From Folioceros fuciformis (taxonomy: Eukaryota): 44,544 bases of DNA. A model generated the notes under the pieces. It ran no database searches and was not told the origin of the DNA. It saw nothing but the letters and a program-made list of their open reading frames with translations. The DNA lies in NCBI GenBank assembly GCA_049999805.1, contig JBNGIO010006232.1:75048-119591 (forward strand). The letters are read 5' to 3'. Positions 6,364-44,544 of the stretch are shown here, in pieces (position 1 is the stretch's first letter; each line of letters begins with the position of its first letter). A program made the position numbers and the translations under genes.

Positions 6364-8811
6364 ATGTCACTCCTTGCGTATGGTCAGGGGTTACTGGCAG
6401 GTGACTTTGAGGAAGGGGCCGGGATCACAGTTCCATGGGGATCCACCCAACCCTGGTTTGTTTGGGGGGAGGATTTTTCCTCTGAGAGCTCTTGTAGCGG
6501 GGATGAAGAGTTTGGGGCGGACCTATTCTTCAACGCTGTGGCAGCTGGAGCTCCGGAAGACCTTCAACAGGATGAACGAAGCAGTAGCAGGGCAGTGAGG
6601 ACGGAGTTGCACTGGGACTCTCCTCCCCAGTCCCCTGGTGCAGTCTCTGTTCACCTGCCATATGCAGTTCTGCAGATTGTGGCAACAGCATCCAAGGCAG
6701 ATGTCGTCGGAGTAGGAGTCATGCAGAGTAGCGAGCCTCTTCTGGAACATCTGTTGCATGTTCCTCGAGGGCTTGAGGTTCCCGATGTTTTTGAAATTTC
6801 GACCAACAGCTTCTTAGCGAGCAGCACTGGAACCCTTATGTTTGTTACTGATGAGTTGGACGTGCCAGCGCAGTTTGAGATGGGCCTTGGAGGGAGGCCC
6901 CAGGCAGTCCTTGCCAGTCGGTTCTATCTGGATGGGTTCTTGGGAATCTTCTATGCTTTGTGGCTGGATGCCCAGAAAATTCCACCGACTGTCGAAGCTA
7001 TTTTCCGTGATTCGCTGGTGTCTCTACCGAACTTGTTGTCAAATAGGATAAATGCAAGAAGGTACGAGAATTTGGGTAGGAGATTTGATGCGATCCTTAA
7101 GATGATGCCACAGGCTGTGGTTTTTGTGGACGACGAGACTGTCCAGGTGCTGGTGAACCCAGCTGCTGCCGACCTGCTGGGACTTCAGTCCCATGGTGAA
7201 GTTCAGCCTCTAGAGGTTGCAGAAGCCATGAAAAAGCTGGCTGAGAACAGTGGCACTCGTACTGATCCTCAAAGGATCATAAACGCAATTTCTGGCAAGA
7301 ACGATGGGCTGCACATCAAGGAGGAGTGGACGCTGACAAATCCTAGAAGAGTGCTGCTGGTGGGCTCGTATCCTGTGAGCAGTCATTCTGCTCATGGTCG
7401 CCAGTGGTATTTTGAGGATGTCACAGCCGAGCGTGATGCACGCGAAGCTATATTGTCTGCGAACAAAGCCAAGTCCCAGTTCCTCGCTATGATGAGTCAC
7501 GAGCTTCGGACACCTATGACTGGGGTGTTGGGGATGCTGGACCTGCTCAGTCTAACCAAGTTGGACTCCCACCAGCGGGAGCTTGTCAAGATCATGCAGG
7601 ACTCCGCTGATGGTTTGATGCAAGTCCTGAATAACATTCTGGATTTTTGCAAGATAGAAGCTGGCCGACTCTGCCTGGAGGAAATCGACTTTTCTCATGG
7701 TGAACTGTTGGAGCAGGTTATGGCTCTGCAAAAGGAGAAACTTGGTGATCATACGGTCGAGTTGAGGTTGAAGGGACCAGCAACTTCTCGGAATATGGTA
7801 CGAGGGGATCCTGTCCGTCTCCGACAGATTCTCATGAACTTGGTGAACAATGCTGTCAAATTTACGCCGAAGGGGATCGTAAGTATCTCCTGGAACTTGA
7901 GTGATCTTCTCACCCCCACAGCTGCATTTGCATTTGGTTCAAAGTTGGCAGCAAAAGGTGGCGCAGCTATGCGAACGAGTTTCCGCAGGTCCGGCAGTAT
8001 GTGTCGGACAGAATTAGCATCTAACCCACAGGACCTTGGGGCAGCTGCATCACGGGATAAGAAATACCACTGGCTGGAGGTGAAGGTTGCAGATACTGGA
8101 GTGGGTATGCCAGCGGAGCAGTTGCAGACATTGTTTGCCGGGAGTCCTGCAGCCAGTCTGCGTCGGGATTCTGCAGGCCCAGGACTTGGGCTGCAAATAT
8201 GCAACGGCTTACTTACGCTGATGGGGGGTGCAATCAGGGTGGAGAGTGAACTACACCGTGGTACAACAGTCACTTTTATCGTTCCCCTGCTTCCAGGGGA
8301 GGAGCTAGATAAGTTAGCCGCCATCCCAGCCACCCCTGCACCGAAACCCACACCGAAGCCTCCTTTGAGAGCTTCCGCCGGTACTGAACCATCCGACGGT
8401 AGCTGCACTTCAATCAAAGTCCTGGTTGCCGAGGACAATAGAGTGAACCAAGTTCTGATTAGGAGAATTCTGTGCCACTACGGGCATCAGGTTGAACTTG
8501 TCGGCAATGGGAAGCTGGCTGTGGAAGCTGTGCAGAAGAAGTCCTATGACTTAGTGCTCATGGATCTGCAAATGCCAGTTCTGGACGGCTTGAGTGCCAC
8601 GAGGGCCATAAGGGCTCTGCAACCTCCCACATCCCTCATTCCTATATATGCCCTCTCGGCCGATGCTCTTGCCCCGGAGAGCGGCCCTATGGAGGAGACA
8701 GGCCTCAGTGGCTACCTCAGCAAGCCCATTGAATGGGACAAGATGGCTGGGGTGGTTGATAAAGTGTTGGCACAAAAGGCTGCCGCTGTCGTCCACGACT
8801 CTGCTTCTTAA
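6364..8811 (+). CDS. Soluble hybrid histidine kinase (putative GAF-like + PAS + HisKA + HATPase + receiver), intronless CDS
   Basis: H-box FLAMMSHELRTPMTG, N-box LRQILMNLVNNAVKFT, G1 VADTGVGM, G2 PGLGLQIC. Receiver motifs VLVAEDN, DLVLMDLQMP, YLSKP. PAS-like segment FDAILKMMPQAVVFVDD...NPAAADLLG...WYFEDVT. No clear transmembrane helix. Start codon uncertain. Confidence 0.92.
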   Translation: MSLLAYGQGLLAGDFEEGAGITVPWGSTQPWFVWGEDFSSESSCSGDEEFGADLFFNAVAAGAPEDLQQDERSSSRAVRTELHWDSPPQSPGAVSVHLPYAVLQIVATASKADVVGVGVMQSSEPLLEHLLHVPRGLEVPDVFEISTNSFLASSTGTLMFVTDELDVPAQFEMGLGGRPQAVLASRFYLDGFLGIFYALWLDAQKIPPTVEAIFRDSLVSLPNLLSNRINARRYENLGRRFDAILKMMPQAVVFVDDETVQVLVNPAAADLLGLQSHGEVQPLEVAEAMKKLAENSGTRTDPQRIINAISGKNDGLHIKEEWTLTNPRRVLLVGSYPVSSHSAHGRQWYFEDVTAERDAREAILSANKAKSQFLAMMSHELRTPMTGVLGMLDLLSLTKLDSHQRELVKIMQDSADGLMQVLNNILDFCKIEAGRLCLEEIDFSHGELLEQVMALQKEKLGDHTVELRLKGPATSRNMVRGDPVRLRQILMNLVNNAVKFTPKGIVSISWNLSDLLTPTAAFAFGSKLAAKGGAAMRTSFRRSGSMCRTELASNPQDLGAAASRDKKYHWLEVKVADTGVGMPAEQLQTLFAGSPAASLRRDSAGPGLGLQICNGLLTLMGGAIRVESELHRGTTVTFIVPLLPGEELDKLAAIPATPAPKPTPKPPLRASAGTEPSDGSCTSIKVLVAEDNRVNQVLIRRILCHYGHQVELVGNGKLAVEAVQKKSYDLVLMDLQMPVLDGLSATRAIRALQPPTSLIPIYALSADALAPESGPMEETGLSGYLSKPIEWDKMAGVVDKVLAQKAAAVVHDSAS

Positions 8812-9596
8812 ACCCCGATGTTCACATGTACTCTGGAGGCATTGAAGGGTCCTTCCCCTTTCACAAGAAGCCAGCCAAGGAAGCAGGGTGAGATGGTTCC
8901 TTATAGTCTTACTTGTTGTGTAACAAAGCCTGCCTTTGTGTTGTCACTTCTGAGAGCCTCTGTTGTGCAGAAGCGTTTAGAGTCTAGAGGCGTCCTAGGC
9001 TTAATCCAGGAGGACAGGGAAGCTGAAATCGTACCCTTCGAGGCTTCTTTTGAGAATTTAATATTTGGAGAAGAATATTGTCTCCGATGTCAGTGTTCAG
9101 GTTTGTGTGTATCTGCTCACTCTGCATACAGAATGCCTCTGAGTTTGTCTGGAAATCTAGCCAGCAATTTCTATAAAGAATCGCATGCCGGGATGCAGTC
9201 GGAGCTTCTTTCACGACCAACTTTGCACGGTGCTTCTCGAGTTACCGGGTTCAGCAAAGCACTGTGATGTACATGTAACTGCAGTTATCGTTTCTTTCCA
9301 AAGTGAGGAAGCTTCTCGTGCGACATCGCCCCACGTGCACCCATGGTGAGTTGGCAGACGGACAGAGTCCCTGGATACCATGGATGATCGGACGACTAGG
9401 CATATGCCTGATGGACCATCGCACGGCTAAGAGCTCCAACCTGTCGCAGGTGCCACGCCCTGGATATGGTTGCCAATGTGTGCCACAATTTGTGCGGGGG
9501 AGAGATCGAGGGATGCAACTAGTTGATTGCTGTTGGTGGTCCTCTGGTTTGCTCACCGTCAAGAAGATCTAGAGGTTGATCTCGTGCTTGTTGCTG

Positions 9597-11813
9597 ATGT
9601 TGAATCGCCTGGCGGGAGCCGTGTTCGGAGCACTAGCGGTGGTCTCAACTGCCTTCAGTATGGTGCAGGACAGTGATATTGAAGGCACCATAGCCTTCAG
9701 CATCGTGGGCCGAATTCAGTACGCATTCGACGTCTACGTTACTCCTCATCCTCTGTCGGGGTCCGGAATCTGGGAAATTCGGCTCACAGATGGCGTGTCA
9801 GTGAATTACAATGCTCAGTTGCGGGAGGGGATTAACGTTCCCGCTCTCGGCTGGCGGGGACCCTTGGCCGATGTGGTGTCAGGATGGCCGACAGTGGATG
9901 TGCTGCTGTTCATCTCGGAGAGGTTGGGCAACGTTGAGTGCTTTGCCCGCCTCTCTCAAGGGCATGCCATTGAGCCGGTGGAGCAGAAGCTGCAGGACCT
10001 GAAGATCGATGAAGTGGTGGAGCACGGTAAAGACGCTGGTGAAAGACGAGAGGTGATCCTGCCACTCAGCTCTCTCATAGGATCGAAGGAAGGCGCCAGC
10101 TCCACCGTGGGCCAAGAGAGGATCAGCCTGGCGGACCGCCCTCTCTTGGCCAACAACACAGTCTATTTTGTCTCCACAAGAGAGCCTGCGGAGAAATTGC
10201 TGCAGTCATGGACGGCGATTTTCTCCGTCAGCCTGGAGACTGGATTCACTCAGCGGCTCACCCCGCAGGGAGTGAGCGACTACAGCCCCGCCATCTCGCC
10301 TTCCGGAGAATGGATCATGGTGGCCTCCAACCAGGGTAAGGGGTACCAGGGCCTGGAGACCAGCGTGATGGACTTGGATCTCTACATCTTCAAGGCCAGT
10401 GACGGATCCCGGCGCCGGATAGCTGTCGCAAACGGAGGCTGGCCAACTTGGAAGGACGAATCCACCGTCTTCTGCCACCGACTCGCAGACGACGGCTGGT
10501 GGAGCATCTTCAAGATCACTCTTCCTCCAGATCTGGCAACTTGGGAAGGCGATCTGAAGCTTCAAGCTGAGAGAGTCACTCCTCCCGGAGTCCATGCCTT
10601 CACTCCTGCTGCTTTCTCCGGGAACAACTGGCTGGCCGTGGCCACGCGCCGGCCCGGCGAATCCAACTTCCGGCACATCGAGGTCTTCGACCTGGAAACC
10701 TCCTCCTTCTCGAAGGTAACAGAGGCGATCCAGCCCGATGCACACCACTACAGTCCCTTCGTCTCTGCTTCCTTCATCGGCTACCACAAGTGCAGGGGCC
10801 CAGGTTCGGATTTGAACGAAGTCCCGCGGCTGGAGCGGATGGAAACCAGTCTCCCGAGTCTGGATTTGCTGCGCGCCGACGGCGACTTCCCCGCCATCTC
10901 CCCCGACGGATCCCTCATCGCCTACATTCCGGAGCTCTCTGCTTCCGGTGGCCTGTTCATAATGCACCGGAACGGAACGGGACGGAAGGAGGTCTTCTCC
11001 GGGCTGGTGTTCGGCACCAGTTGGGATCGGCAGCGAGCAGGCCGGGTGTATACAACGTCGGGGGCTATCTTTGCTTCAGCTCCGGCTGCGGTGCAGGTGA
11101 TCGCTGTCTCCTTCGACGAGAAGGCGTTCAGGGCGGGTGGCGACCATGAGGCGGCGACCACCTCGTACACCGTGCTGACGTCGGAGGGGACTGGAAACAA
11201 CGCGTTTCCATCCGCGTCGCCCGACGGTCAGGAGGTGGTGTTCCGGTCGGGCAGGTCAGGGTACAAGAACCTATACATCATGGACTCGGAGGGGGAGGCT
11301 CACGGGCTGCGGCGTCTGACAGACGGCGCCTGGACGGATACCATGCCCAGCTGGTCGCCATCCGGAGAGTGGATCGCCTTCTCGTCCGATCGGCACGCGC
11401 CGGGGTCGGGTTCGTTCGCCATCTGGCTGGTGCGACCGGACGGGAGCGGGCTGCATCGGCTGTTGCCGGAGGTGGACGGTCGGATGAACCATCCCTGCTT
11501 CAGCCCGGATTCGAGGCACTTAGTTTTCACAGCCAATCTGGCGGGAAACTCCGCTGAGCCTATTTCCATGCCGCACCAGTTCCAGCCCTACGGCGAGATA
11601 TTTGTGATTGCCGTGGATGGAACGGGACTGAAGCGTCTCACCCACAACGCGTATGAAGACGGCACTCCGACCTGGGGGCGCCCTGCACCTGGTGGTACAG
11701 GGCAGCTGTCGTCCGAGGGCTCGCCCGTGGATTGCTCCTTTGATGATGTGCATTGGATGGGGAGCCCTTCTGTTGGTTTGCGCATTCCCAGTGCGTTCAT
11801 TGCATGCCGTTAG
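9597..11813 (+). CDS. TolB-like / PD40 (WD40-like beta-propeller) repeat protein with N-terminal signal peptide
   Basis: Repeated PD40 motifs (SPAISPSGEWI, FPAISPDGSLIAY, FPSASPDGQEVVFRSGRSGYKNLYIMD, MPSWSPSGEWIAFSSDR, HPCFSPDSRHLVF) and the plant family motif EPISMPHQFQPYGEIF. First ATG at 9597 gives a hydrophobic leader. Confidence 0.9.
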   Translation: MLNRLAGAVFGALAVVSTAFSMVQDSDIEGTIAFSIVGRIQYAFDVYVTPHPLSGSGIWEIRLTDGVSVNYNAQLREGINVPALGWRGPLADVVSGWPTVDVLLFISERLGNVECFARLSQGHAIEPVEQKLQDLKIDEVVEHGKDAGERREVILPLSSLIGSKEGASSTVGQERISLADRPLLANNTVYFVSTREPAEKLLQSWTAIFSVSLETGFTQRLTPQGVSDYSPAISPSGEWIMVASNQGKGYQGLETSVMDLDLYIFKASDGSRRRIAVANGGWPTWKDESTVFCHRLADDGWWSIFKITLPPDLATWEGDLKLQAERVTPPGVHAFTPAAFSGNNWLAVATRRPGESNFRHIEVFDLETSSFSKVTEAIQPDAHHYSPFVSASFIGYHKCRGPGSDLNEVPRLERMETSLPSLDLLRADGDFPAISPDGSLIAYIPELSASGGLFIMHRNGTGRKEVFSGLVFGTSWDRQRAGRVYTTSGAIFASAPAAVQVIAVSFDEKAFRAGGDHEAATTSYTVLTSEGTGNNAFPSASPDGQEVVFRSGRSGYKNLYIMDSEGEAHGLRRLTDGAWTDTMPSWSPSGEWIAFSSDRHAPGSGSFAIWLVRPDGSGLHRLLPEVDGRMNHPCFSPDSRHLVFTANLAGNSAEPISMPHQFQPYGEIFVIAVDGTGLKRLTHNAYEDGTPTWGRPAPGGTGQLSSEGSPVDCSFDDVHWMGSPSVGLRIPSAFIACR

Positions 11814-19494: not shown

Positions 19495-20084
19495 CGCAAA
19501 TTTCTCGAGTTTGAAAGGGAGCCCCCGCCCAGCCTATAGCTCCCTCGAATATGAACGCAGATTTCGCTTAAACCGAAGGAGTTATAGCCTCTGCATTGGC
19601 TCGGTATTATCGGGACAACTGCATCTGCTTCGCCAGGCGGCGGGCTCCCGGCGCCGGCGGAGGAAGGGACGCTTTTCATGTCACCAAGACACCTTAAATA
19701 CTGTACAATAATACCTAACAAAATGAACGTCTTTTTCTTCACCTTTCTCCTTCAGGGAACGCTTCGACCATTTGGGCCCTGGTCGATCTGCTCCATGGAG
19801 TGACCTACACTGCATACCCATCTCTGGACGCCTCTCCTCGGGCCGAGGACCATATTTTGTGCTCGGTCGGAGCGACAGGCTCGTCCGGTAATGATGACTG
19901 TGTCGTGCCGGTAATAATGTAAGTATGGGCCATATTCCAAGTGTCACATGGGAAACTCCGACCCCGAGCCTGGCCTTGGGCTGGGCCTTCCGTGGGAGCT
20001 CTTTAAGGTGCACGACCGCATTGGCTGGACGTCCTCATTAGTCTAGTGTTGTTAGACTCTTGTTCCGGGAGCGGTCAGTGAACG

Positions 20085-23000
20085 ATGGCCACTGCATGGA
20101 AATCGGACCCTTCGTGGATCCAACGAATTGCGAATGGTGTGTGTACAGAAATTGCACCAGGAGATCCCGGCTCAGGGAGTCAGACCATGCCTCTGGCAAA
20201 CAAAGCCTTCAGGTGCAGCAGTGTAAGTAGACCAGCACATCCCTTTCTGAAGACGTGCATGGGTAGGGACGGAATTTGCCAGGAGCAGGAGCACTTGTGG
20301 CAACAATTTTTTCTGGACCCGACTCTGTGGTGGGACAACAGACGAGATAAGAAGAGCTCCCGTGCGCCTGACTTCCGGCGTAAGAAGACCGGCGAGGTGC
20401 TGTGGTTAAACAGCGTTTTTAAGCCAGCTTGGGTTGATGAGCAGCTCATGTCCATGGATATGCAGATGGGACGCTGTACATCGCCGTCAGAGTGCGGGTC
20501 ACCGGATAGGGCTGGAATTGGGAGGGGTGGAACAGCAGAAATGGATGTCGTTACGGCCCTAAACGTGAGCACTTTCTGTGAGCAGGGGAAGCTTTCTGAG
20601 GCCGTTGGAGCTCTGGAATCTCTGGTGCGGACGGACTCTGTGATTTCCGACTCTCTGTTTTGCACTGTGCTGAGACTGTGTACAGCTAAGAAGGATTTGG
20701 TTGTGGGACGACGCGTTCATGATCTGTGTGTCGAATTTGGATACGAGTCTAATACGTACTTGGGGAACCATGTCTTGCGCATGTATGCATGTGGAGGGAG
20801 GCTACAAGAGGCCATGCATGTGTTCACCAGGGTAGGGAATCCAGATGTTATCACTTGGGGTTCCATTATCTCTGCATATGCTAAACATGGGAAACCCAAC
20901 GAAGCCATACAACTGTACCATGAGATGCGTAAGTCAGGAGTGAAGCCGAATGGGCACGTCTTTGTAGCTGCTCTTCAAGCCTGTGCATTTGGCGCCGACT
21001 TGGAGTCTGGCAGAAAAGTGCACTCTGATGTTTTGCACAGTGGCATTCCTTCTAACCCGTTTGTTGGCAACTGCCTGGTGGACATGTATGCGAAATGCGG
21101 TGGAATGGGATATGCCCGGCAGGTTTTTGATAGCATGGCCGTAAAGGATGTGGTGACATGGAATGCTCTGATATCTGGGTATGCAAAATGTGGTGAACTG
21201 AAAGATGCACGCCAGGCCTTCGACAGCATGGCCATGAAGGATGTGGTGACGTGGAATGCTCTGATAGCTGGATACGTCGAGCAAGGGCTCGGACATGAGG
21301 CACTTGTTCTGTATGAACAAATGGAGCAGGATGGGCTTATTTTGGCTAATCATGTCACTTTTGCTTGCCTTCTGAATGCCTGTGCCAGCACGGGTGCCTT
21401 ACTGAAGGGCAAACAGCTGCACTCAAAGATTGTAGAAAGAAGACTGCAGGGCAATATACTGGTGGACAACTGCCTGGTAAACATGTATGCAAAGTGTGGT
21501 GAACTTGAAGTTGCACGCCAGTTTTTTGACAGCTTGGCCACAAAGGATGTGGTGACGTGGACGTCTTTAATTGCTGGGTATGCACATCAAGGACTGGGCC
21601 AAGAGGCGCTTGTTCTATATGGACGAATGGAGCAAGGAGGCCTCATTTTGGCTAACCGTGTCACTTTTGCTTGCCTACTGAAGGCCTGTGGAAGCATTGG
21701 TGCCTTGCAGAAAGGCAAGCAGCTTCACTCACAGATTTTGAAAAGCGGGCTACTGGATGACGTAGTGTTGCGCACCTGCCTGGTGGACATGTATGCAAAA
21801 TGTGGTGAACTAGAAGATGCACGCCAGGTCTTCGACAGCATGGCTACAAAGGATTTGGCGACATGGAATGCCCTGATATCTGGGTATGCCAAATGTGGTG
21901 AAATGCACAATGCACGCCAGGTTTTTGACAGCATGGCCACAAAGGATGTGGTGACATGGACGGCACTGATAGCTGGGTATGCCCAGCAAGGACCTGGCGA
22001 AGAGGCACTGATTGTGTATGAACGAATGGAGCAAGAAGGCGTGATTTTAGCTAACCACGTTACTTTCGCTTGCCTTCTCAATGCCTGTGCAAGTACTGGT
22101 GCCTTACAGAAGGGCAGACAGCTGCACTCTCAAATTGTCGAAAGAGGACTGCTGGATAACGTACTGCTGGGCAACTGCTTGGTGGACATGTATGCCAAAT
22201 GTGGTGAACTGGAAGACGCACGCCAGGTTTTCGAGAGCATGAACGTAAAGAACGTGGTGACATGGAATGCCCTGATATCTGGGTATGGTACTTGTGACGA
22301 AGGTCACCTGGCATTAGCTTGCTTTGAGGAGATGTTACTTGCAGGTACGCAGCCTAATGACGCCACCTTTACTTGCCTTTTGGTAGCATGCAGTCATGGG
22401 GGACTTGTCGAAGATGGTCGCAAGCATTTCGATTCCATGGCTAAACAGCACGGCATCAGACCTAGTATTGAGCACTACGTTTGCATGACTGATCTTCTTG
22501 GGCGTGCCGGCCACTTAGATGAGGCGGAGAAGATTCTATCATCATGTGAGGGCCAAAGCAATGTTGTGGGCTTGCGGTCTTTGTTAAATGCCTGCAAAAA
22601 CCACGGGGATGTCGAGAGGGCCAGGAGGTGTTTTGAAAGCATTGTTAGGCTGGACCCCCAGGATGCCCCCGGGTATGTGCTCATGGCCAACGTCTATGCA
22701 GATGCAGGTAGGTGGACCGACGTAGACAGGATTGAAACGCAGAGAAGGGCAGCAGGAGCTAACAAGAAACCTGCAATGGCGACCATTGAGGTAAACAAGC
22801 AGGTACATAGATTTCTGGTGGGAGAAAGGAGGGAGGATATTGCACTTCAGGCAGAGAGCACGAACGCACGTATGAAGCAGGAAGGAGGACACGTTCCTCA
22901 CACAAAGTTGGTGCTGAAGCCAGTGTGTGAGAAGGAAAAGGAAGATGCGCTCTGTGGGCATGCTGAGAAGCTAGCTCTGGCATTTGGTCTCTTGAACACT

Positions 23001-23168
23001 CCGAATGGAACACCTCTAGTAGTAACTAAGAATTTACGCATGTGCAGTGACTGCCACAGTTCCACTGTGATCATGTCGAGGGTGGAACAGAGAGACATTG
23101 TCGTAAGAGATGCTTACAGGGTGCATCGATTCGCAGCGGGTTGCTGCAGTTGTAATGGTCGACCGTGA
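20085..23168 (+). CDS. PLS-class PPR protein with E1/E2 and DYW:KP (GRP-type) domain, putative organellar U-to-C RNA editing factor, with N-terminal PDF motif
   Basis: About 20 P/L/S/SS motifs. KP box KPAMATIEV, zinc site HAEKLA...CSDCH, C-terminus CCSCNGRP*. Single 1027-aa ORF. Confidence 0.95.
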   Translation: MATAWKSDPSWIQRIANGVCTEIAPGDPGSGSQTMPLANKAFRCSSVSRPAHPFLKTCMGRDGICQEQEHLWQQFFLDPTLWWDNRRDKKSSRAPDFRRKKTGEVLWLNSVFKPAWVDEQLMSMDMQMGRCTSPSECGSPDRAGIGRGGTAEMDVVTALNVSTFCEQGKLSEAVGALESLVRTDSVISDSLFCTVLRLCTAKKDLVVGRRVHDLCVEFGYESNTYLGNHVLRMYACGGRLQEAMHVFTRVGNPDVITWGSIISAYAKHGKPNEAIQLYHEMRKSGVKPNGHVFVAALQACAFGADLESGRKVHSDVLHSGIPSNPFVGNCLVDMYAKCGGMGYARQVFDSMAVKDVVTWNALISGYAKCGELKDARQAFDSMAMKDVVTWNALIAGYVEQGLGHEALVLYEQMEQDGLILANHVTFACLLNACASTGALLKGKQLHSKIVERRLQGNILVDNCLVNMYAKCGELEVARQFFDSLATKDVVTWTSLIAGYAHQGLGQEALVLYGRMEQGGLILANRVTFACLLKACGSIGALQKGKQLHSQILKSGLLDDVVLRTCLVDMYAKCGELEDARQVFDSMATKDLATWNALISGYAKCGEMHNARQVFDSMATKDVVTWTALIAGYAQQGPGEEALIVYERMEQEGVILANHVTFACLLNACASTGALQKGRQLHSQIVERGLLDNVLLGNCLVDMYAKCGELEDARQVFESMNVKNVVTWNALISGYGTCDEGHLALACFEEMLLAGTQPNDATFTCLLVACSHGGLVEDGRKHFDSMAKQHGIRPSIEHYVCMTDLLGRAGHLDEAEKILSSCEGQSNVVGLRSLLNACKNHGDVERARRCFESIVRLDPQDAPGYVLMANVYADAGRWTDVDRIETQRRAAGANKKPAMATIEVNKQVHRFLVGERREDIALQAESTNARMKQEGGHVPHTKLVLKPVCEKEKEDALCGHAEKLALAFGLLNTPNGTPLVVTKNLRMCSDCHSSTVIMSRVEQRDIVVRDAYRVHRFAAGCCSCNGRP

Positions 23169-24697
23169 GAACAATGAAGTAGCCAGCGGTCAAGAGTGGA
23201 CGATAGAGGACTGTACCTACGGAGTGGATGTGCTTGCTTCAGTCCATCCCTGTCCGAACTGAGACATGGACGGGGATCGGTGACCTCGCCATTGCCGCCA
23301 CCATCCCCCGATCGAGCCACTTCGAGGTGATTTGATTTTAGCTAAGGTGAGCTGAGTTCTGGTGAGCGAACCTGAGTTAAGCTGATCTCATCATGTTACT
23401 GAACACCGTAGAGTATTGTGGTGTGGCAGGTACAGGAGCGCAGGCTCACTCCGGAGCTATGGCCGACGGGCTATCGTGGATCGACACGACGCTGGCAGGG
23501 AGGGTGCCCTTAGTTGCCACTTGAGACAGATGTGTAGAGCTTTTGGTGCTGTCCGGCACTACTCTCCGGGGTTGGCGAACCCTATCCTGCCCGATTGCCC
23601 CGCTGCCTTCTCTTCAACTGAACTCAGGTTTTACGAATCCTTCCCTGCTTGAGTTCCTTGCTGCCCTCAGAGCTATCCCGCTCCAGTGCAATCAGCTGCA
23701 GCGTGAACCTGGCGGAGAGATCGTCGTCAGGTGGTACACTTATGTCTCAACTACGGTATGCAACTCGCTTAACTAGAGAGTTACGTGGTGTTTCTCAGTG
23801 CGTGAGTTGGTGTCAACCTTCAAAGGGCCCAGGGCTCGCAATGTTAGCAATGCGAAGAAGGCGACTCTGTACGCTTTAGCTCCCGACACTCACAGAGGAG
23901 ACCTTCTTGCAAGGTTTGAAATGTCGGCATCATGGTCATCTGCTGGACAACTTGTGAGAATGTAGGGAAAATCAATGTGATATTCCAACCAAGGACTCTG
24001 CCTACAAACCAAGTGTATAGAAGCCTGATGTTTGTTGGCATCCACCCTATACCCCTGGAGCAAGCAGATAAACAGATGTTATTGCAAGGGCTCCACTTGT
24101 GAAGGTCAATTTTGAGTCCGACAGTGACACATACTATGATATGACAATGTTTCGTCCTGCCAACTTGCACAGAAAAGCTTCCGTCACTCTCGTGGAAAAG
24201 CAGGTCCGCGAGTGGAAAGGCGGGGGTCCCAGTACGGCCTGTCGAGCACGCATCGAGTGGACGAAGAGAGCGGGAAAGGAACGGAACAGACGAGAGCCTT
24301 ATATCAGAGTTCGGTAACGAGCCCGCCCGGGGATAACGCAGACAGGGCTCCCAGACTACTAGACAGCATGCGCGACTGAGATGGGGAAGAGGCACTCTGA
24401 AGGGTGCCGACGAGTATCGTTGTGTCCGCTCTTTGAATCTACCGGGGTAATCTCATGATCTTGTGGACTCCTCAACCCTAAACTCTATGTGGCTAAGTGG
24501 ACAACAAGGGTTAGGTGCAGATAGAACGTGCCCACCGGCTGGCGTGCAAGCACACGCCTTTCATAATCCTCTGTTCATGTAGTAGAGCTGTTCCGGGCCC
24601 AATACTCACAGCCCAATAGAGGGAGCGGGTTGTGAGATCATTACAACAAAAAAGAACTTGACCACGAGCACGGTCAAGAACATGGCTCACATGTGTG

Positions 24698-26931: not shown

Positions 26932-27861
26932 ATGAGTTATGGAGTAATCGGGAGTTCGACCTCCATGGAGCTGGCTGCAAGCGCAAGGCTCGGTTTCGGA
27001 GGCGAGTCCTTGTGCGGACGGAAGGAGACGTCTTTCTTGTGCGAAGGCAGGAAGCTTGCCTCTCCCGCGTCTCTGCGAGCGTGGTGCGTAGGAGGCGAGA
27101 GGAGGCCCCATTTGCATGACTTGCGTGCTGCAGCGGGGAATGGATGGCACAGGACGGCGAAGGACAGGCTGGCGCATGGGTCCAGGGTTTACCATCGTGT
27201 GGAGGAGGGGGACACACTATTCTCCATCGCCAAGCAGCACAACACGACAATGCGCTCCATCGCCTTGGCCAATGACGTGACCAACATCGACGTACTTCGG
27301 GCGGGGCAGGTGCTGGTTGTGCCCGTGCTGCCGGGAGGGTTCACCAGAGTCTCAGCTGTCATCACGGACTTGGCGGAGCCGGTTGTGTCGCAGGCTGTAG
27401 GGTTTGGAATCGGAGAAGGTGGCGGGAGGGGAGGTTCATTTTTTTTTTTTTTTTGGGTGGCGAGGTTTGCCATCCCCGCGTTTCTGCTGGCCCCGATCTT
27501 GGGGTTCTGCGCGAGGTGCCTGGTGGATAGGATTCTAGCCAGGGCTGAGGACCTGGTTCAGGCGAGACTGTTGGAGGATGCTAGATGGGATATTTACCAC
27601 CGGAACCAGCTGCGGGAATGGAAGGGACGCATGGGGGAATTCAAGGCCGGGGAATTGCCGGCTGATTCTGTTGCATTGGCTCTTGCCAGTAGCAGTGCCA
27701 AGGGGGAGGATGGGATGGAGGAACGCGATCAGGACGATGAGGTGGATCCCTACCAGTCGTATGCCGAACTGGAGTCTTCGTACACCAAGTTTCTCGTGGA
27801 CAGTGGGCTAGCTGAGACCGGTTACAGGCAGCCTGCCTCTGTTCGTGGGAGAGACGGTTGA
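26932..27861 (+). CDS. Single-LysM-domain protein with probable plastid transit peptide and transmembrane helix
   Basis: LysM: YHRVEEGDTLFSIAKQHNTTMRSIALANDVTNIDVLRAGQVLVVP. Hydrophobic segment FWVARFAIPAFLLAPILGFCARCL. C-terminal YAELESSYTKFLVDSGL. A small intron near the poly-T (27439-27454) cannot be excluded. Confidence 0.82.
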   Translation: MSYGVIGSSTSMELAASARLGFGGESLCGRKETSFLCEGRKLASPASLRAWCVGGERRPHLHDLRAAAGNGWHRTAKDRLAHGSRVYHRVEEGDTLFSIAKQHNTTMRSIALANDVTNIDVLRAGQVLVVPVLPGGFTRVSAVITDLAEPVVSQAVGFGIGEGGGRGGSFFFFFWVARFAIPAFLLAPILGFCARCLVDRILARAEDLVQARLLEDARWDIYHRNQLREWKGRMGEFKAGELPADSVALALASSSAKGEDGMEERDQDDEVDPYQSYAELESSYTKFLVDSGLAETGYRQPASVRGRDG

Positions 27862-28159: not shown

Positions 28160-30856
28160 TCACCTGGGTGAGGATAAGCGCTCAGCAGAAAGTTGGCTCA
28201 ATTTCACTCCCTCGTACTCCCCGAACCCATCAAAGCTGTGTAGAGAGTGGCTGCTGGATCCAGTAGCGGTATCTGCTTTGGGGCAGAGGCCTCGGAAAAA
28301 CTGGCTGCACAGGGGAGGTTGTGGGACGTGGATGTTGCCCTCCAGCATGTCCACGACTTTACCCATGGAGGGTCTTAGGGTGACATCCTCCTGAATGCAC
28401 CAAAGAGCCACTCTGAGCACCAGAGCAACCATGTTGCCGTCTACACATCCCCGGAGTTTTGGATCCAGCAACTCAGAGATGTTGCTAATTTCGACTTGCC
28501 CGAAAGCATAGGCTGGGAAGTACCATTTTTCGGATGTCTCAGAGGAATCGAAGTTCTTTCTGCCGCTGACGATTTCTAGCAGCACCATTCCATAGGTGAA
28601 AACATCGCTCTTTTCGGTGATGGCGTAGTTTGTAACCCACTCTGCTGCAAGGTAGCCCCGTGTGCCTCCCATGGTGGTGAACACGTGGCTCAGCTCTCTG
28701 TTCATCAGCTTTGCAAGACCAAAATCCGAAACTTTGGCTAAGAAATGCTCGTCCAGTAGGATGTTCTCAGGCTTGATGTCGCAGTGAATGATCTTCTCAC
28801 GACATTCCTCGTGCAGGTAGGCAAGTCATTGTGCTGTGCTGAGCGCAATGTTGAACCTTTGATGCCACAGCAAATTCTTCTTTGCAGAAAAGAGGGATTT
28901 GCCGAGGGACCCATTCGCGAGGTACTCGTACACAAGAAGCCGATGCACTCCCTCTGTACAGAAGCCTCTGAGCTGAACGAGGTGTAAATGATGGATGCTC
29001 CCAATTGTGGCCACTTCTGCCCGGAACTCCTTGAAGCCTTGCCCAAGGCTCTCTAGCTTCTTCACAGCCACCTTGCTGCCGTCTGCGACAGTGCCTTCGT
29101 AAACTGACCCAAAACCTCCAGAACCCAACTTGTTGCTGAAGCTGAGAGTGGCCCGTTCTAGTTCCTTGTATGAGAAACGCATGGGAAGGCCCGGTATTGC
29201 TTCGAGGAATACCTCCTCGTCCTTGATCTCAGTATCGTCCTGCTTGCCAGTTTTCGTACCTCTGCAGATTCGTAGTGCCAAGAGAACGGAAGCGAGCAAC
29301 AATACAAGGAGTGCTATGCAGATAGCGCTGATAGCGGCAATGCTGGTACCTACCGCCTGCCAAGTGAGAGATTTGTTAGAGTAAAAAACACGGTGTAACA
29401 AGCATCTTACGAGAATCACGTCATTGAGAAAAGTGCAGACTGTAAGGTGATACACACGTTTCGTTGACGACGGTGCAATCTTAACAAATGCTACATGTTT
29501 AGGGTCATGGTCCGATTGCAAAGTTGCAACCTGATCCACCGTGTAGCAGTCCCCAGTCGTATCCCAATAGAATAAAGCTGTGCAAGAGCAGTTGTGGGCG
29601 CAGAATTCTTTGCAATCTAATAAACTTGGCATCTTCACGGGACTATCATACTGGTTCGAGAAGTAGTTCACCCCTCCTGCCGGACTGGTAATCTGCAACC
29701 ATCGAACATCGGCAACTATGCCTACCGTTTCCGACGAGCAACCTGCAGCGACCCGACCGACATTCCCCGGCATTTGGCAATGTAGGAAAGGGATTGTACC
29801 ATTGACAGGAACAAAGGGAACAGGACACCGGCATTGCCCCTGAGTGCAGATCCCGTAAGGTCCGCATGTGCCAGGGAGCTTTCAGGAAGCATCATCGCCA
29901 GGTGGCAGAGAACTGGCTGTCTGCCCATGTCGCCCCTGTGTTATCAATAAAGAAAGTCTCCAGCATTCCACCCTGATTCAAGGTGAGCCCTCTAGGACGT
30001 GTTCCGCCGTTGCCAACACAGAACTCTGAGACGAGCTGCTCTTCACCCGTGAAAAGCTCTAAAGCCTTTTCTACCAGCTTCGCAAAGGCCGGAATGCCTG
30101 TGACGTTGGCTTAGCAGTGCTTCTTGCGTCGCGTCTCATGCTCCAGTACACATGTTCCTCGTTTGCTGCAGATGCCATGAGCACCAAATTCCCCTTGAAA
30201 CATCGAGAGAGAATAGTTGCCTTCAGATAGGTCTCCATCTGACACACTCGACACCAGCTTAGAGACGTTGTTGAACTTCTGCTTTGCCAGCAAAGTATCT
30301 GTAGGATGGTCGAAGCTCTGCCACAGCACGGTCGTGTCGTTGCTCAGAACAACCAGATTGCCGGTTTCCTGCTCCACCACCAAACCCACGACATCAACAA
30401 AACTTAAAGCCGGCCAGATGAACATCAGTAGGGCGAGTAGGATAGTACCTCCAACTGTACGCTGCTCGCTGTGGAGTTTCCGGTGCCAGTCGACCACACC
30501 ACTGCACTCGAGTTGCTCAAAACAACATATCCACCAGGCTGAAATACCAGGGGATCGGAGATCCTCACTCGGGAGTTCCTATTAGCTGTCCACACCACAA
30601 AATCCGTGGCAGGATGCCAGATGCACAGATAGAAACCATCCGTGCTTGACCTGAAGCCTAGCTGGAAGCTGTTGTTTGCGGATCTCAGAAACGCTCCACT
30701 GGAGTCGATGAAATTCACCCGAGATCCGCTAAATCCAACAGTTAGACTGTCAAATACCATGCCAATCACAGGAAACACCAGGAGGGAGGAGATCACGCAA
30801 ACCTCCACCGTACAAGACGAACACCAGGACACGTCCAGAGCAAGCGACCGTAGCAT
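28160..30856 (-). pseudogene. G-type lectin S-domain receptor-like kinase (SD2-5-like), disrupted
   Basis: Bulb lectin (VVWTANRN, LWQSFDHPTDTLL), EGF-like (CGPYGIC), PAN (CAHNCSCTALFY), TM and kinase (LGSGGFGSVY, IIHCDIKPENILL, DFGLAK, GTRGYLAAEW, LSSPR*). Lesions: frameshifts near 30190, 30110 and 29900, and in-frame TGA at 29882-29884 (Cys position) and 28826-28828 (Gly position in TA.GLAYLH). Confidence 0.85.
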
Positions 30857-32149: not shown

Positions 32150-33574
32150 TCACCAGAACTTCAATTTGAGATGGAAGGCTTGGGCGAGGGTCATGCCTCC
32201 AGCGAGGAAGGCAAGGTAAGCAATGAGTGTAGAGAATGCCCAAATCGGGGTGACTGAGATGGTGTCCGTGCTCAAGTTCACCAATCCGGTGAGCACATTG
32301 GCTAGCAAAAACGTTGGTAGAAGGTTCTGATCAAAGGCATCCATCCAAATCATCCGTCTCAGAGGAAGAAGAGCTTCTGCCAGGGCGAAACTTCCGATCA
32401 CCTGGAAGTTCTGCCCCAAAATAAATAGAACGTAGGCCAGGTTGCATGTTCGCCGTGACACTCTCTCAACGAGCTGATCAGTCACAGCTGCCAGAATCCA
32501 GAACACGGCATCCAAACCACATACTTCCATAGCGGTGTACCAGCGGACAGACTCCTCCCTGAGCTTGTCATCATCGGTTACAGTTTTGAATCTCTTGAAC
32601 AGAAGCCCAGCTGACTGGTTTACCATGAATCCCAGCTGAACACTGATAAGGTAGAGGGCCCAGTATCCCAAAGTGCTGTACAGGCCTTCCTTGTTCAAGC
32701 TCACGATGCTGGATCCCCTCTCTGATGACAGCAGATACTCGTTGAGCCCGGAGGATAGCCATGCTTGATATGCTGCTAGGATGAGAAGGCCTACAACCCC
32801 ACTCACGGAGGCCGGGATCTGGATCACGGATGTGAGGAGAGTCACGGCGGCGAGCGTGAAAAAAAAGTTCCAGTGAAGCCCGTACTCTGAAATATGCTCC
32901 TGGTAGTCCACACCTTTGGTCAGAAACAGCCTGGCAAAGCCAAGGGCGAGAAGGGGGCTCACGCTCCTCAGCACAGCCCCATACATGGGCGGCAAACCTC
33001 TTGCTTGTCTGGAGACCAATGCGTTAGCCACCACAAAAGATCCCACCCCCACGTCCATCAACCCTGTGCCGTAGGTCTCTGTCTTGGCCAGCCTTCTAGG
33101 GTAGATTGTGAAGTCCACAGCGAGAATTGTGATGCATGTCACCAGCATCATGGCGCACCTGTACGATGAAAGGAAGGACCTGCGAGGAGGGCCCCCCACC
33201 TGTTGTTCATCTAAGGTGGCCCGACTTGTGCCCCGAAGAAGCAAAACGCAAGCCAGCAGCACGAAGACCAAGGTCGCAAGCACGACATTGACAGATTCTG
33301 CAAGGACAGTGAGGCTAGCTAGAATCGGCAGGATCACCACCGTCAGCTCGATTCCTAAAGACCTAACCACCTCACTCCACAGTCGTCGGCCCTTGACAGC
33401 CAAAGGGGGCCTGAACGGAGTGTAGCTGGCCACAATCTGTCCCAAAACCATAAACCCCGGAACCACCGCTGACAGAGCTGCAATCTCTGGCATGCTGGTG
33501 CCATCTAGATTGCTCACAAATTCCTCCTTTCTCAGTTTGTAGGAACTCGTAATGGACGCACTTCGGTGGGCCAT
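32150..33574 (-). CDS. PIGW: GPI inositol acyltransferase PIG-W/GWT1, intronless
   Basis: Motifs KLRKEEFVSNLDGTS, TILAVDFTIYPRRLAKTETYGTGLMDVGVGSFV, YQEHISEYGLHWNFFFTL, NKEGLYSTLGY, VSRRTCNLAY, FLLANVLTGLVN. Confidence 0.95.
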   Translation of the reverse strand: MAHRSASITSSYKLRKEEFVSNLDGTSMPEIAALSAVVPGFMVLGQIVASYTPFRPPLAVKGRRLWSEVVRSLGIELTVVILPILASLTVLAESVNVVLATLVFVLLACVLLLRGTSRATLDEQQVGGPPRRSFLSSYRCAMMLVTCITILAVDFTIYPRRLAKTETYGTGLMDVGVGSFVVANALVSRQARGLPPMYGAVLRSVSPLLALGFARLFLTKGVDYQEHISEYGLHWNFFFTLAAVTLLTSVIQIPASVSGVVGLLILAAYQAWLSSGLNEYLLSSERGSSIVSLNKEGLYSTLGYWALYLISVQLGFMVNQSAGLLFKRFKTVTDDDKLREESVRWYTAMEVCGLDAVFWILAAVTDQLVERVSRRTCNLAYVLFILGQNFQVIGSFALAEALLPLRRMIWMDAFDQNLLPTFLLANVLTGLVNLSTDTISVTPIWAFSTLIAYLAFLAGGMTLAQAFHLKLKFW

Positions 33575-36253: not shown

Positions 36254-38811
36254 ATGGAGGTGATACAGGCGAGGATCATCATCAGTCAGCCCCCTCAGAC
36301 GATTCCTATCAGCATAAAAGGGAGACGGTGCCCGAAACTCGGTTTGGACCGGATCTCGTTCCCTCCCATTCGGGGTTATAGGGGGAATCTGACTGCGTCA
36401 GTCCCGGAGGAATTGCCAAGCTCGCCTGAAAGCAATGCAGATAGCAACCCAGTCGGAAAGGATTCACCTGCTCTCTTCCTGAGGCGGCCTGTGAAACGGC
36501 CCAAGACCCAGCTGCAGTTGGACTGGCAGGAAGGTGCCTGGGTGCGTGAGCTTGTTCAAGGTCGGCCTGATTCTGAAAAAGCAGGGGAGGAGGCAGACGT
36601 TGACCGGTCGGAAGGTGGAGGTGAGCCTCCAGGGTCGGATGGCAATGGAGGGACACGGGGCACAAGCACGTCTCACCACAAGTCTGATGACAATCGATCA
36701 CAGATGCACAGTTTGGAAGATGCGGAGGAGAGTAGATTGGCGAGGGCTGAGTGGCAAAGAAAGGTGAGTTCTTTGATGGAGGCGGCTAAGGTGCAACCCA
36801 AGTCATCCTTGACAGAGGATTTGGAGGTTTCCGACGATGAAAAAGGGGATTCTGCAAAGTCCGCATCACTGGATGATGCTGAAATGGAAGCTTTGTTTCC
36901 TGGTAGGGGTACCAGGTTTGGAGTCCGAGGTATGGGGGAGAGTAGTATGCCGTTTGTGGAGCTCTGGGCTGATGAGGCCTCTCCACGGGCAGAGAAAAAT
37001 ATTCTGAGAAGTTTGGAGCCAGGAAGTTTTGTGGACAGCTTGTTTGAGGATGGAGAATTGGAGAGCAGTACCAATAGGAGAGGAGATATAGGAGAAGCTG
37101 GCGAAGCAGATGAGCCTTCAGTATCAAAGTCCTCCGATGACAAAGCAGACGCCAGCAACCAGCTTTCCAAACGGTTGCCGGACAAAGTGGCAGAGGATAA
37201 CGTATCCCAGGCCTTGTACGAGTGGGCTCAGAAGGTGGTGCAGACTCTTCCGCAATCAGCACACATCGTGAAGAGGAAGATGAATGTGCAGGAGTTGGTG
37301 GGTTTGCTTGCACGAGTTTCTGATGAGGCAGCCATCGGTGCTGAGTTATCCAAGTATCAGGCCGAGAACGGGGGTCTGAGTGAATTGACATCTTCGATGG
37401 TGGTGGTGGAGCTGTGCAGAACAGGCAGAGCCAAAATAGCTTTGCAGGTGCTTGACTGGTTGTCGAAAGCCGGGGTTCAGTTGAGGTTGACCTCGTACAA
37501 CTCTCTGCTTGCGGGTCTGGTGAGGGCGAGTTGTTTTGAGGAAGCATATGATGTGTTTGAGAAGATGAAGAGCGAGGACGTGAAGCCCAGTGTGTATAGT
37601 TACACGCTGCTGATGCAAGTAGCGGCCCGCACCAAGGGTTACAAAGCTACCCTGAGAGTCTTCAACGAGATGGTGAAAGATGGCAGGTGCAAGCCTGATG
37701 TGTTTTCTTTCAACTGCCTGATATCGGCCTTTGGTAGGGCTCACAAATGGAAAGAGGTGGCCCAGATATGGGAGAAAATGAAGCAGGACGGGTGCAAGGA
37801 AGGCATGGGCACCTACTGCCTTTTGGTCAGCACCTTTGTGCGGTGTAATCAAGTTCACCTCGCTCTTGAAGTCTATCATTCCATCATCCAGAGGTCCTGG
37901 AAACCCAATAAGGATATTTTGAAAGCTCTGATCTGCTCCTGTGCCAAAGAGGGACGCTGGATGCTAGCCCTCGACTTTCTGGACGAGATGTTGGTGAGCG
38001 GAATCAAACCATCAGCAACTGTGTTGAACTCTGTTCTGAGCTCCGTGGCAAAATCTGGAGAGTTAAACCTTACCTTCAGAGGATACGAGTGCATGAGAGC
38101 CTTGGGACTGAAGCCAGACCCATATACGTGGTGCTCTCTGTTGACCGCTCTGAATTGCTCAGGCGAGTACGACAGAGCGTGGAAGCTGTTCGAGTCGATG
38201 AAGGACATGGATGTGAAGCCGACCTGCGAGGTGTACAGCTCCATGCTTGCAATATGCCTCAAGGTGGAGAACTGGCAGACGGCATTGCGGCTGGTGTGGG
38301 AAATGGAAAAGGAAGGGTTGAAGCCAGATGTCCAGGTCTACACTCTCCTCATCAACACGTGCGAGGCGGCAGGGCAAGCGCAGGTGGCTCTAGAAGTGTA
38401 TGAGCACATGCTGCAAATCCGCGTTGCACCCAATTGCTTCACCTACGCCTCACTCATCCGAGCCTGCGGCAAGGTGTTCAACTGGCACAAAGCCAGAGAG
38501 CTGTTTCAGGTAATCAATTCCTCTCTTTCCTTGCTCCATGAAAACTACTGCTTCTCGGCTGTTAGATCTCTGTCTCCGTCCCTTGCCCACTCACTCACTC
38601 CAATTTGCTCCCATTACAGGAGCTGAGAGAAGCTGGCTTGGCTCCCAACATCTATGTCTACAATGCCCTGTACCATGCCTTCATAAAAAGCGGACAGGTG
38701 AACTATGCCAGAAAGCTGTACTGGGAAATGCTCGATCACGGCTGCAATCCAGACACCGTGACCAGGGACCTTTTCGCGAAACACCCAGTCCTGGCAGGTT
38801 TGATCAAGTAA
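36254..38811 (+). CDS. P-class PPR protein (At3g29290/EMB2076-like); 2 exons (36254-38509, 38620-38811)
   Basis: About 11 P-type repeats after a long acidic N-terminal region. Motifs TYCLLVSTFVRCNQ..ALEVY, CAKEGRWMLAL, VALEVYEHM...FTYASLIRAC resemble At3g29290. GT-AG intron in phase. Confidence 0.88.
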
Positions 38812-43890: not shown

Positions 43891-44544
43891 TGTAAGATAG
43901 CGTGAGCGAGAATTGGAATAATAATAATAATAATAATGCATAATGGCAATACAAAAATGTTTAAATACTTTCTACATGTCCTTTCACTAGACAACCCCTA
44001 ATTATATATAAACTATATATATNNNNNNNNNNGTCGATAAAGGCGATCAACCTCTCGATTCCTGTTTAAGGGATGCGTTGGTGATGCGCCGGGCCTACTG
44101 TTAAGTGCAGCAAATCGTTGCAGCCAAAGGGCAAGGTAGTCGTATTCGTGGAGGTCCAGCGCCGAGTCAAGATCAACTTGTAGTGGCGCTATACGTCTTG
44201 GTGGGTTGGTATCTTGTCGTCGACGTTGTCTAGGAAACCCACCACGATGAACCTCTATGCGAGCCACCCTGCCTCGGCATCTTCCAGGAATTGTGTTAGG
44301 AGACAGAGCATGGCTCTGAGACCATATGTAAGATGAGCGTGAGCAAGAATTGGAATAATAATAATAATAATCCATAATGGCAATACAAAAATGTTTAAAT
44401 ACTTTCTAGATGTCCTTTCACTAGACAACCCCTAATTATATATAAACTATATATATATCCCTAACCGTGGGTTAAGTTTAACCATTCTGCGCTAACATCA
44501 CAGGACTTCCTTTCTCGGGTGTACTGATCCCAGATCTTCAGCTC
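43891..44544 (-). mobile_element. LTR retrotransposon (minus strand): partial 3' LTR 43891-44022, assembly gap, internal remnant, PBS 44311-44324, 5' LTR from 44327 running off the window
   Basis: About 130-bp near-identical direct repeats, both starting TGTAAGA on + (ending ...TCTTACA on -). The minus strand has TGGTCTCAGAGCCA 2 nt after the LTR end, a 13/14 match to the tRNA-iMet PBS TGGTATCAGAGCCA. Confidence 0.8.
44023..44032. other. Assembly gap (10 N)
   Basis: Run of N. Confidence 1.

Follow-up and report, generated by a model that had tools for sequence, protein, structure and literature searches.

Plant RNA-editing factors are usually seen as a transit peptide followed by a tract of pentatricopeptide repeats (PPRs) and a C-terminal E/DYW part, whose DYW domain works at the 3′ edge of the PPR footprint. 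In the DYW:KP proteins, KP stands where a PG box would otherwise open the DYW domain, and gives the class its name. Here we describe a gene in a stretch of 44,544 nucleotides from Folioceros fuciformis (contig JBNGIO010006232.1 of assembly GCA_049999805.1, positions 75,048 to 119,591 of the forward strand; 'the window' below means this whole stretch) that encodes a DYW:KP protein with a further unit at its N-terminus, which by its sequence is the PDF motif of the OSB proteins.

In OSB proteins the PDF motif, of about 50 residues, lies C-terminal to an OB fold and occurs in one to five copies. It is reported to be the part of these proteins that binds single-stranded DNA (ssDNA) (PMC6963530, PMC4166229, PMC6451138), and to be sufficient for this binding in AtOSB1 (PMC6963530). 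AtOSB2 is reported as a tetramer (PMC6963530), and AT4G20010, which a preprint gives as the OSB2 locus, is reported to be PTAC9, which belongs to the plastid transcriptionally active chromosome (PMC4080259). R-loop formation is reported to be lowered by OSB1 (PMC8330923).

For the editing factors, PPR tracts are reported to lie on RNA with the protein running N-to-C in parallel to the RNA 5′-to-3′, and to recognise ssDNA under the same rules, though less tightly (PMC13041630). The DYW:KP proteins of hornworts are described as DRH and GRP subgroups, named for their last three residues, and the alanine of HAE in their HxE(x)nCxxC signature is described as specific to KP domains (PMC9478123); a conserved Lys88 is reported in a DYW:KP domain of 132-133 residues (PMC11845758). 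Designer proteins of the GRP type that lack a PDF motif and begin with thioredoxin-His were reported to reach about 26% and 22% U-to-C editing in E. coli (PMC9478123).

One open reading frame holds a PDF motif, a PPR array and a DYW domain

The gene is an intronless open reading frame (ORF) of 1027 codons plus stop at 20085..23168 on the forward strand, which also carries all the features of the gene given below, and its predicted product (P0001) has the order PDF-PLS-E-DYW:KP(GRP). No stop codon occurs inside the frame, and in the ORF listing of the window it is the sole ORF of more than 250 aa at that place. An earlier note on this DNA, made from its letters, had claimed an OSB/PTAC9-type PDF motif in the same uninterrupted ORF as the PPR array and a deaminase-like domain; the placement was borne out by the ORF and by the Pfam matches, and residues 72-121, encoded by 20298-20447, are identical in their letters to those quoted there.

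The protein begins with a variable presequence (20285 being its last coding position, from 20085; residues 1-67), which is presumably an organelle-targeting peptide. The PDF motif follows at 20286..20459 (residues 68-125, the envelope given by a hidden Markov model (HMM), which encloses residues 72-121), and is joined by a variable linker at 20460..20549 (residues 126-155) to the PLS-type PPR array at 20550..22601 (about residues 156-839). The linker is rich in G, S, P, T, D, E and M, which make up 24 of the 34 residues over residues 122-155. The array was matched by the Pfam families PPR (PF01535; E 6e-100, in 10 stretches) and PPR_2 (9 stretches), and BLASTP alignments with PPR paralogues begin, in the longest cases, at residues 135-164. 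The E motif, with its E1/E2 PPR-like units, lies at 22602..22766 (residues 840-894; Pfam PF20431 over residues 840-902, E 2.2e-17), and the DYW:KP domain of 133 residues at 22767..23165 (residues 895-1027; Pfam PF14432, DYW_deaminase, over residues 935-1025, E 8.9e-33, in the same frame as the PPR repeats).

The first 172 residues, in which the PDF motif lies, gave no Pfam match at all, even at E ≤ 1. The in-frame methionines within the first 121 residues are residues 1, 35 and 59, all three upstream of the motif. When the motif was searched against all six frames of the window, no second PDF copy appeared, and no poly(A) trace of retroposition was seen 3′ of the stop codon.

The N-terminal unit matches the PDF motif of OSB proteins

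With residues 55-135 as query, phmmer was run on 1.84 billion representative proteins; E-values of 1e-3 or less were obtained for 639 of them, of 1e-10 or less for 201 and of 1e-30 or less for 18. Many aligned in 2-19 separate stretches, as expected of PDF repeats. Among the matches was a protein named 'protein OSB1, mitochondrial-like [Populus nigra]' (P0035; E 2.4e-24). Ten of the motif-matching proteins were run through Pfam, and seven had a match to SSB at E ≤ 0.01; in three (P0013, P0028 and P0032) SSB scored above the Pfam curated cut-off and lay upstream of repeated motif matches, which is the layout of OSB proteins as given in three reviews (PMC6963530, PMC4166229, PMC6451138).

An HMM made from 328 copies of the motif found the one in P0001 at residues 68-125 with an E-value of 1.8e-25. 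An alignment of 56 sequences gave the consensus LWQxFFxxPxxWWDNRxxKxNPxxPDFKHKxTGEALWLxxxxxPxWVxxQL, and the P0001 copy has all 6 of its invariant and all 7 of its nearly invariant columns. Judged by sequence, residues 68-125 are an OSB-type PDF motif, with a match far beyond chance, and the identity claimed in the earlier note held on each of these counts: the phmmer search, the HMM, the conserved columns and the match named OSB1.

The whole motif, with all its conserved residues, is thus common to the OSB proteins and to P0001; in P0001, however, a single copy stands at the N-terminus, ahead of a PPR array and a deaminase domain. No SSB or OB-fold-like domain was matched in P0001 or in its first 172 residues on their own (Pfam, E ≤ 1), and because such a domain is missing, the sequence is not that of an OSB protein. 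The PDF motif has no Pfam model, so that domain censuses based on Pfam would miss it, and this is probably why domain surveys overlook the motif.

A sequence search of the PDB with the motif gave 0 matches at E ≤ 10, and a search of the ESM Atlas gave no usable match. A word-index search with residues 55-135, restricted to near lengths, returned 3 candidates of which 0 were scored, and was superseded by the exhaustive phmmer search.

The deaminase domain is of the KP type, GRP subgroup

Counting positions in the last 133 residues of P0001, the DYW domain starts with KPA, has HAE at position 65, Lys88 and CxxCH at position 93, and ends in GRP. For comparison, the DYW domains of two PG-type proteins (P0116 and P0160) open with PG. 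Since all features of the subgroup are present (PLS array, E motif, KPA, HAE, Lys88, CxxCH and GRP), P0001 is by sequence a GRP-type PPR-DYW:KP protein, and the earlier claim of a DYW:KP deaminase domain was confirmed by the KPA start, HAE, Lys88, CxxCH and the GRP end. For the window itself, such a protein points to a hornwort or a near relative as the source. It shares the PLS array, the E motif and the 133-residue KPA...GRP domain with the hornwort GRP subgroup on which the designer proteins KP2 and KP3 are based, whereas its PDF motif, between presequence and PPR array, lies outside the architecture of that subgroup, and is absent from the designer proteins, as both are described in the sections available of that report (PMC9478123).

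PDF-PPR proteins occur in mosses, lycophytes and ferns

Among the best 150 of the 639 motif matches, 8 also matched the PPR part of P0001. Together with further collecting searches, made with residues 1-330 of P0001 and with the DYW region, 156 PDF-bearing proteins were collected, of which 15 were PPR proteins. P0281 is one further full-length member, and in two short fragments the motif runs into the first PPR helices (P0119, which has the JGI name pentatricopeptide repeat protein, and P0147, which clusters with Sphagnum jensenii proteins). The named sources of the PDF-PPR proteins are Selaginella moellendorffii, Sphagnum compactum, Diphasiastrum complanatum, Adiantum capillus-veneris and transcript assemblies of Pteridium aquilinum, and those in public databases carry generic PPR or hypothetical names only.

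The C-termini of these proteins differ. Besides P0001, three are of the KP type: P0154 and P0158, which end in GRP, and P0188, which ends in DRH. Two are of the PG type, namely P0116 of Sphagnum compactum, with a DYW end, HSE and a PG box, and P0160 of Diphasiastrum, with an NYW end and HSE. Others are E-class proteins that end after the E motifs and have no deaminase (P0111/P0152 of Selaginella, P0092 of Adiantum, P0153 of Diphasiastrum, and P0004). Three copies of the motif are present in P0004 and in P0153, and two in P0050. Proteins of a moss, lycophytes and ferns that come close in layout (for example Selaginella XP_024517303, Sphagnum CAM6033764, Adiantum KAI5076972, and Diphasiastrum O6H91_13G002800 and O6H91_04G027400) have, like P0001, an N-terminal PDF unit (1-3 copies) followed by a PLS array, but their C-termini are DYW:PG or E-class where that of P0001 is KP.

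The earlier note had proposed counting the PDF motif, by HMM, in DYW:KP and in other DYW proteins, and such a count was made on the matches of the DYW-region search. All 97 of them were sorted: 36 were KP-like (35 with HAE, 1 with HCE), and the other 61 comprised 58 with HSE, 1 with HCE and 2 without HxE under the pattern used. A full PDF motif (E ≤ 1e-3) was found in 3 of the 36 and in 0 of the 61; by tail, it was present in 2 of 4 other GRP proteins and in 1 of 8 DRH proteins. The direction of the count agrees with the proposal, but the 61 are mostly seed-plant proteins, so the zero reflects taxon and not type of deaminase, and fusions with PG-type and E-class C-termini exist.

Some database models merit separate mention. 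In P0111 (Selaginella), P0050 (Adiantum) and P0153 (Diphasiastrum), the first motif of some models starts at residues 4-24, leaving hardly any space, or none, for a transit peptide; these gene models may be cut short, or the proteins may be targeted differently. P0083 and P0149 (162-164 aa) seemingly consist of a presequence and a single PDF motif with little else; their models may be truncated, or these may be PDF proteins that stand alone. Among single copies, that of P0083 is nearest to the P0001 motif, at 58% identity. PDF motifs are also present in a Coptis chinensis model that holds a kinesin motor (P0046, 1526 aa) and in a Striga hermonthica model named ICR2-like that holds an SSB-like domain (P0039, 1063 aa), both of which may be artefacts in which adjacent genes were merged, rather than true fusions.

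The motif is conserved between diverged flanks

When P0001 was compared with the three motif-bearing KP paralogues, the presequence was identical at 5-16 of 66 positions and the linker (residues 126-160) at 3-7 of 35, whereas the PDF motif was identical at 27-34 of 59 and the first PPRs at 41-55 of 100. The motif has been kept while both flanks diverged, which argues for selection on it within the mature protein, of which it is probably, on this pattern, a functional part.

A tree was made from 60 columns of 160 PDF copies, using the best copy of each non-PPR protein and dropping an identical Selaginella row (P0152). The PPR-linked copies cluster in it (7 changes against 18.2 in shuffles, with 0 of 500 shuffles as low). 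They do not form one clade in the best tree, in which good support is limited to 8 of the 157 branches, and the tree itself accommodates either one origin or several.

Contigs of four public runs, whose type (RNA or DNA) is unrecorded, were placed on the gene at ≥ 88% identity. At position 20385, in the motif, there were 17, 33, 41 and 23 contigs in the four runs, and at position 23068, in the DYW domain, 22, 27, 47 and 21. Similarity of the contigs begins abruptly at about 20276-20284, with loose ends piling up just before. One run (X1) contained exact pieces at 19983-20301, 20439-20606 and 23038-23348. These numbers hint at dozens of closely related motif-bearing paralogues in the organisms of the runs; the contigs are short, and the copies in them need not belong to PPR genes.

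Composition and predicted structure of the motif

In its 50 residues the motif has 10 K/R, 7 D/E, 5 W and 4 F. AlphaFold2, given the alignment of 56 sequences, predicted a confident compact arrangement of a helix, a small sheet and a helix, with a mean predicted local distance difference test score (pLDDT) of 85.1. Foldseek with this model gave a best E of 5.9, and a wide VIA-align search a best Z of 4.6 (root mean square deviation 3.7 over 60 residues), with no Z ≥ 5 among 48,161 chains. The searches with the predicted model therefore give no fold assignment, and we make no claim of a novel fold. Complex prediction with two motif copies gave no support for self-association and did not rule against it either.

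Place of the architecture among known editing factors

A full-text literature search returned no paper describing a PDF-PPR fusion; supplements were beyond its scope, and a mention in Zaegel 2006 or Gutmann 2020 is possible. The terms PPR and pentatricopeptide are absent from the main text of a 2026 paper on OSB diversification, as are PDF and OSB from the main text of a 2026 kingdom-wide survey of editing factors. The PDF-PPR protein is thus apparently an undescribed architecture, ancient and patchily retained. It would place a second, unrelated nucleic-acid-binding unit at the N-terminus of some editing factors, from mosses to ferns and including the KP type, as a new accessory element in the usual scheme, and through it a connection of editing with the nucleoid would become open to test. 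In the engineering of U-to-C editors the motif would be a natural add-on, though it is neither required for U-to-C editing nor specific to it.

Possible function of the PDF unit

From the identity of the motif, its fusion to the PPR array, its distribution and the pattern of its conservation, all of which the analysis provides directly, we infer nucleic-acid binding and an effect on editing, and we lean, with a little more than even confidence, towards the explanation that the PDF unit is an ancient and optional module that binds or tethers single-stranded nucleic acid, carried by an editing factor on the 5′ side of its PPR footprint. The gene product would be a nuclear-encoded PLS-class PPR RNA-editing factor of the DYW:KP (GRP) type, the type that does U-to-C editing in hornworts, with a PDF unit that follows a variable targeting presequence and precedes the PPR array. 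The unit would be an old module at the N-terminus of PLS-PPR proteins of seedless land plants, presumably retained by some paralogues but degraded in or missing from most. Since the N-terminus of a PPR tract points towards the 5′ end of the RNA and the DYW domain lies at the 3′ end, the PDF unit would be upstream (5′) of the footprint; its flexible, variable linker of about 30 residues would place it past the 5′ end of the sequence-specific footprint and a long way from the edited base. There it might act as a sequence-independent clamp or tether on single-stranded nucleic acid. It could strengthen binding to the RNA upstream of the edited site or keep that RNA open; alternatively, by analogy with the ssDNA preference of OSB proteins, it could hold the factor at nucleoid ssDNA near nascent transcripts.

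Several points weigh against this explanation. AtOSB1 and AtOSB2 are reported to favour ssDNA over double-stranded DNA or RNA (PMC4166229), so that a role of the motif on RNA is not established, and the activity of designer GRP proteins that have no PDF motif means that it is not needed for catalysis. A full motif is missing from 33 of the 36 KP-like proteins. Its hallmark residues have been lost in P0158 and P0188, and two further proteins have weak possible remnants (P0184, with an independent E-value (iE) of 0.055, and P0182, with an iE of 0.077); these decayed copies and remnants suggest that the motif is dispensable in many paralogues. The frequencies are moreover rough, since many of the compared database models are N-terminally truncated and several (P0185, P0189, P0193 and P0199) begin inside the PPR array.

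A different function is conceivable if the motif works by protein contacts, that is, by self-association, by binding nucleoid proteins, OSBs among them, or by sub-organellar sorting. The tetrameric state of AtOSB2 and the identity of the OSB2 locus with that of PTAC9 would fit such a role, and the conserved aromatic residues could equally form a protein interface; however, ssDNA binding is the sole activity that has been assigned to the motif by experiment in the papers cited above on OSB proteins, as far as their available sections go, and we regard protein contacts as an unlikely alternative.

It seems rather improbable that the motif in P0001 is a relic without present function, left from an ancestral fusion and either tolerated or removed on import. 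Such decay is what P0158 and P0188 and the remnants in P0184 and P0182 resemble, and most paralogues lack the motif altogether. The copy in P0001, however, retains every invariant and nearly invariant column, the motif is conserved where its flanks have diverged almost completely, and the fusion persists across mosses, lycophytes and ferns.

About as improbable is a stronger form of the ssDNA option, in which the PDF motif would anchor a conserved subfamily of seedless-plant PLS-PPR proteins to nucleoid ssDNA, such as the non-template strand in transcription bubbles or R-loops, so that editing would be co-transcriptional and coupled to the genome; at its extreme, the deaminase or aminase would act on ssDNA itself.

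Finally, the idea of the earlier note that the motif is an accessory dedicated to reverse (U-to-C) editing, or one that lets the KP domain act on ssDNA, can draw on the presence of the motif in P0001 and in P0154, P0158 and P0188, all of the KP type, and on the 3 of 36 against 0 of 61 in the DYW-region count, but it found no support and is very improbable, because the PG-type (P0116, P0160) and E-class fusions, the 33 KP-like proteins without the motif and the activity of the designer GRP proteins together mean that U-to-C editors can do without the motif and that it also occurs outside them.

Gene neighbourhood

The gene neighbourhood in the window is compact, poor in introns and eukaryotic (plant-like), with a GC content of 53%; a run of 10 N at 44023-44032 is presumably an assembly gap. 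It holds a second intronless PPR gene (36254-38626, forward strand; 790 aa), which is of the P type by Pfam and is without E motif, DYW domain and PDF motif. The other long, uninterrupted ORFs are ordinary eukaryotic genes: those on the forward strand encode a PI3/PI4-kinase-like protein (52-2055), a hybrid histidine kinase with a receiver domain (6364-8811), a PD40/DPPIV-N beta-propeller protein (9576-11813) and a LysM protein (26932-27861), and those on the reverse strand a PAN plus kinase fragment (28826-29773) and GWT1 (32150-33574).

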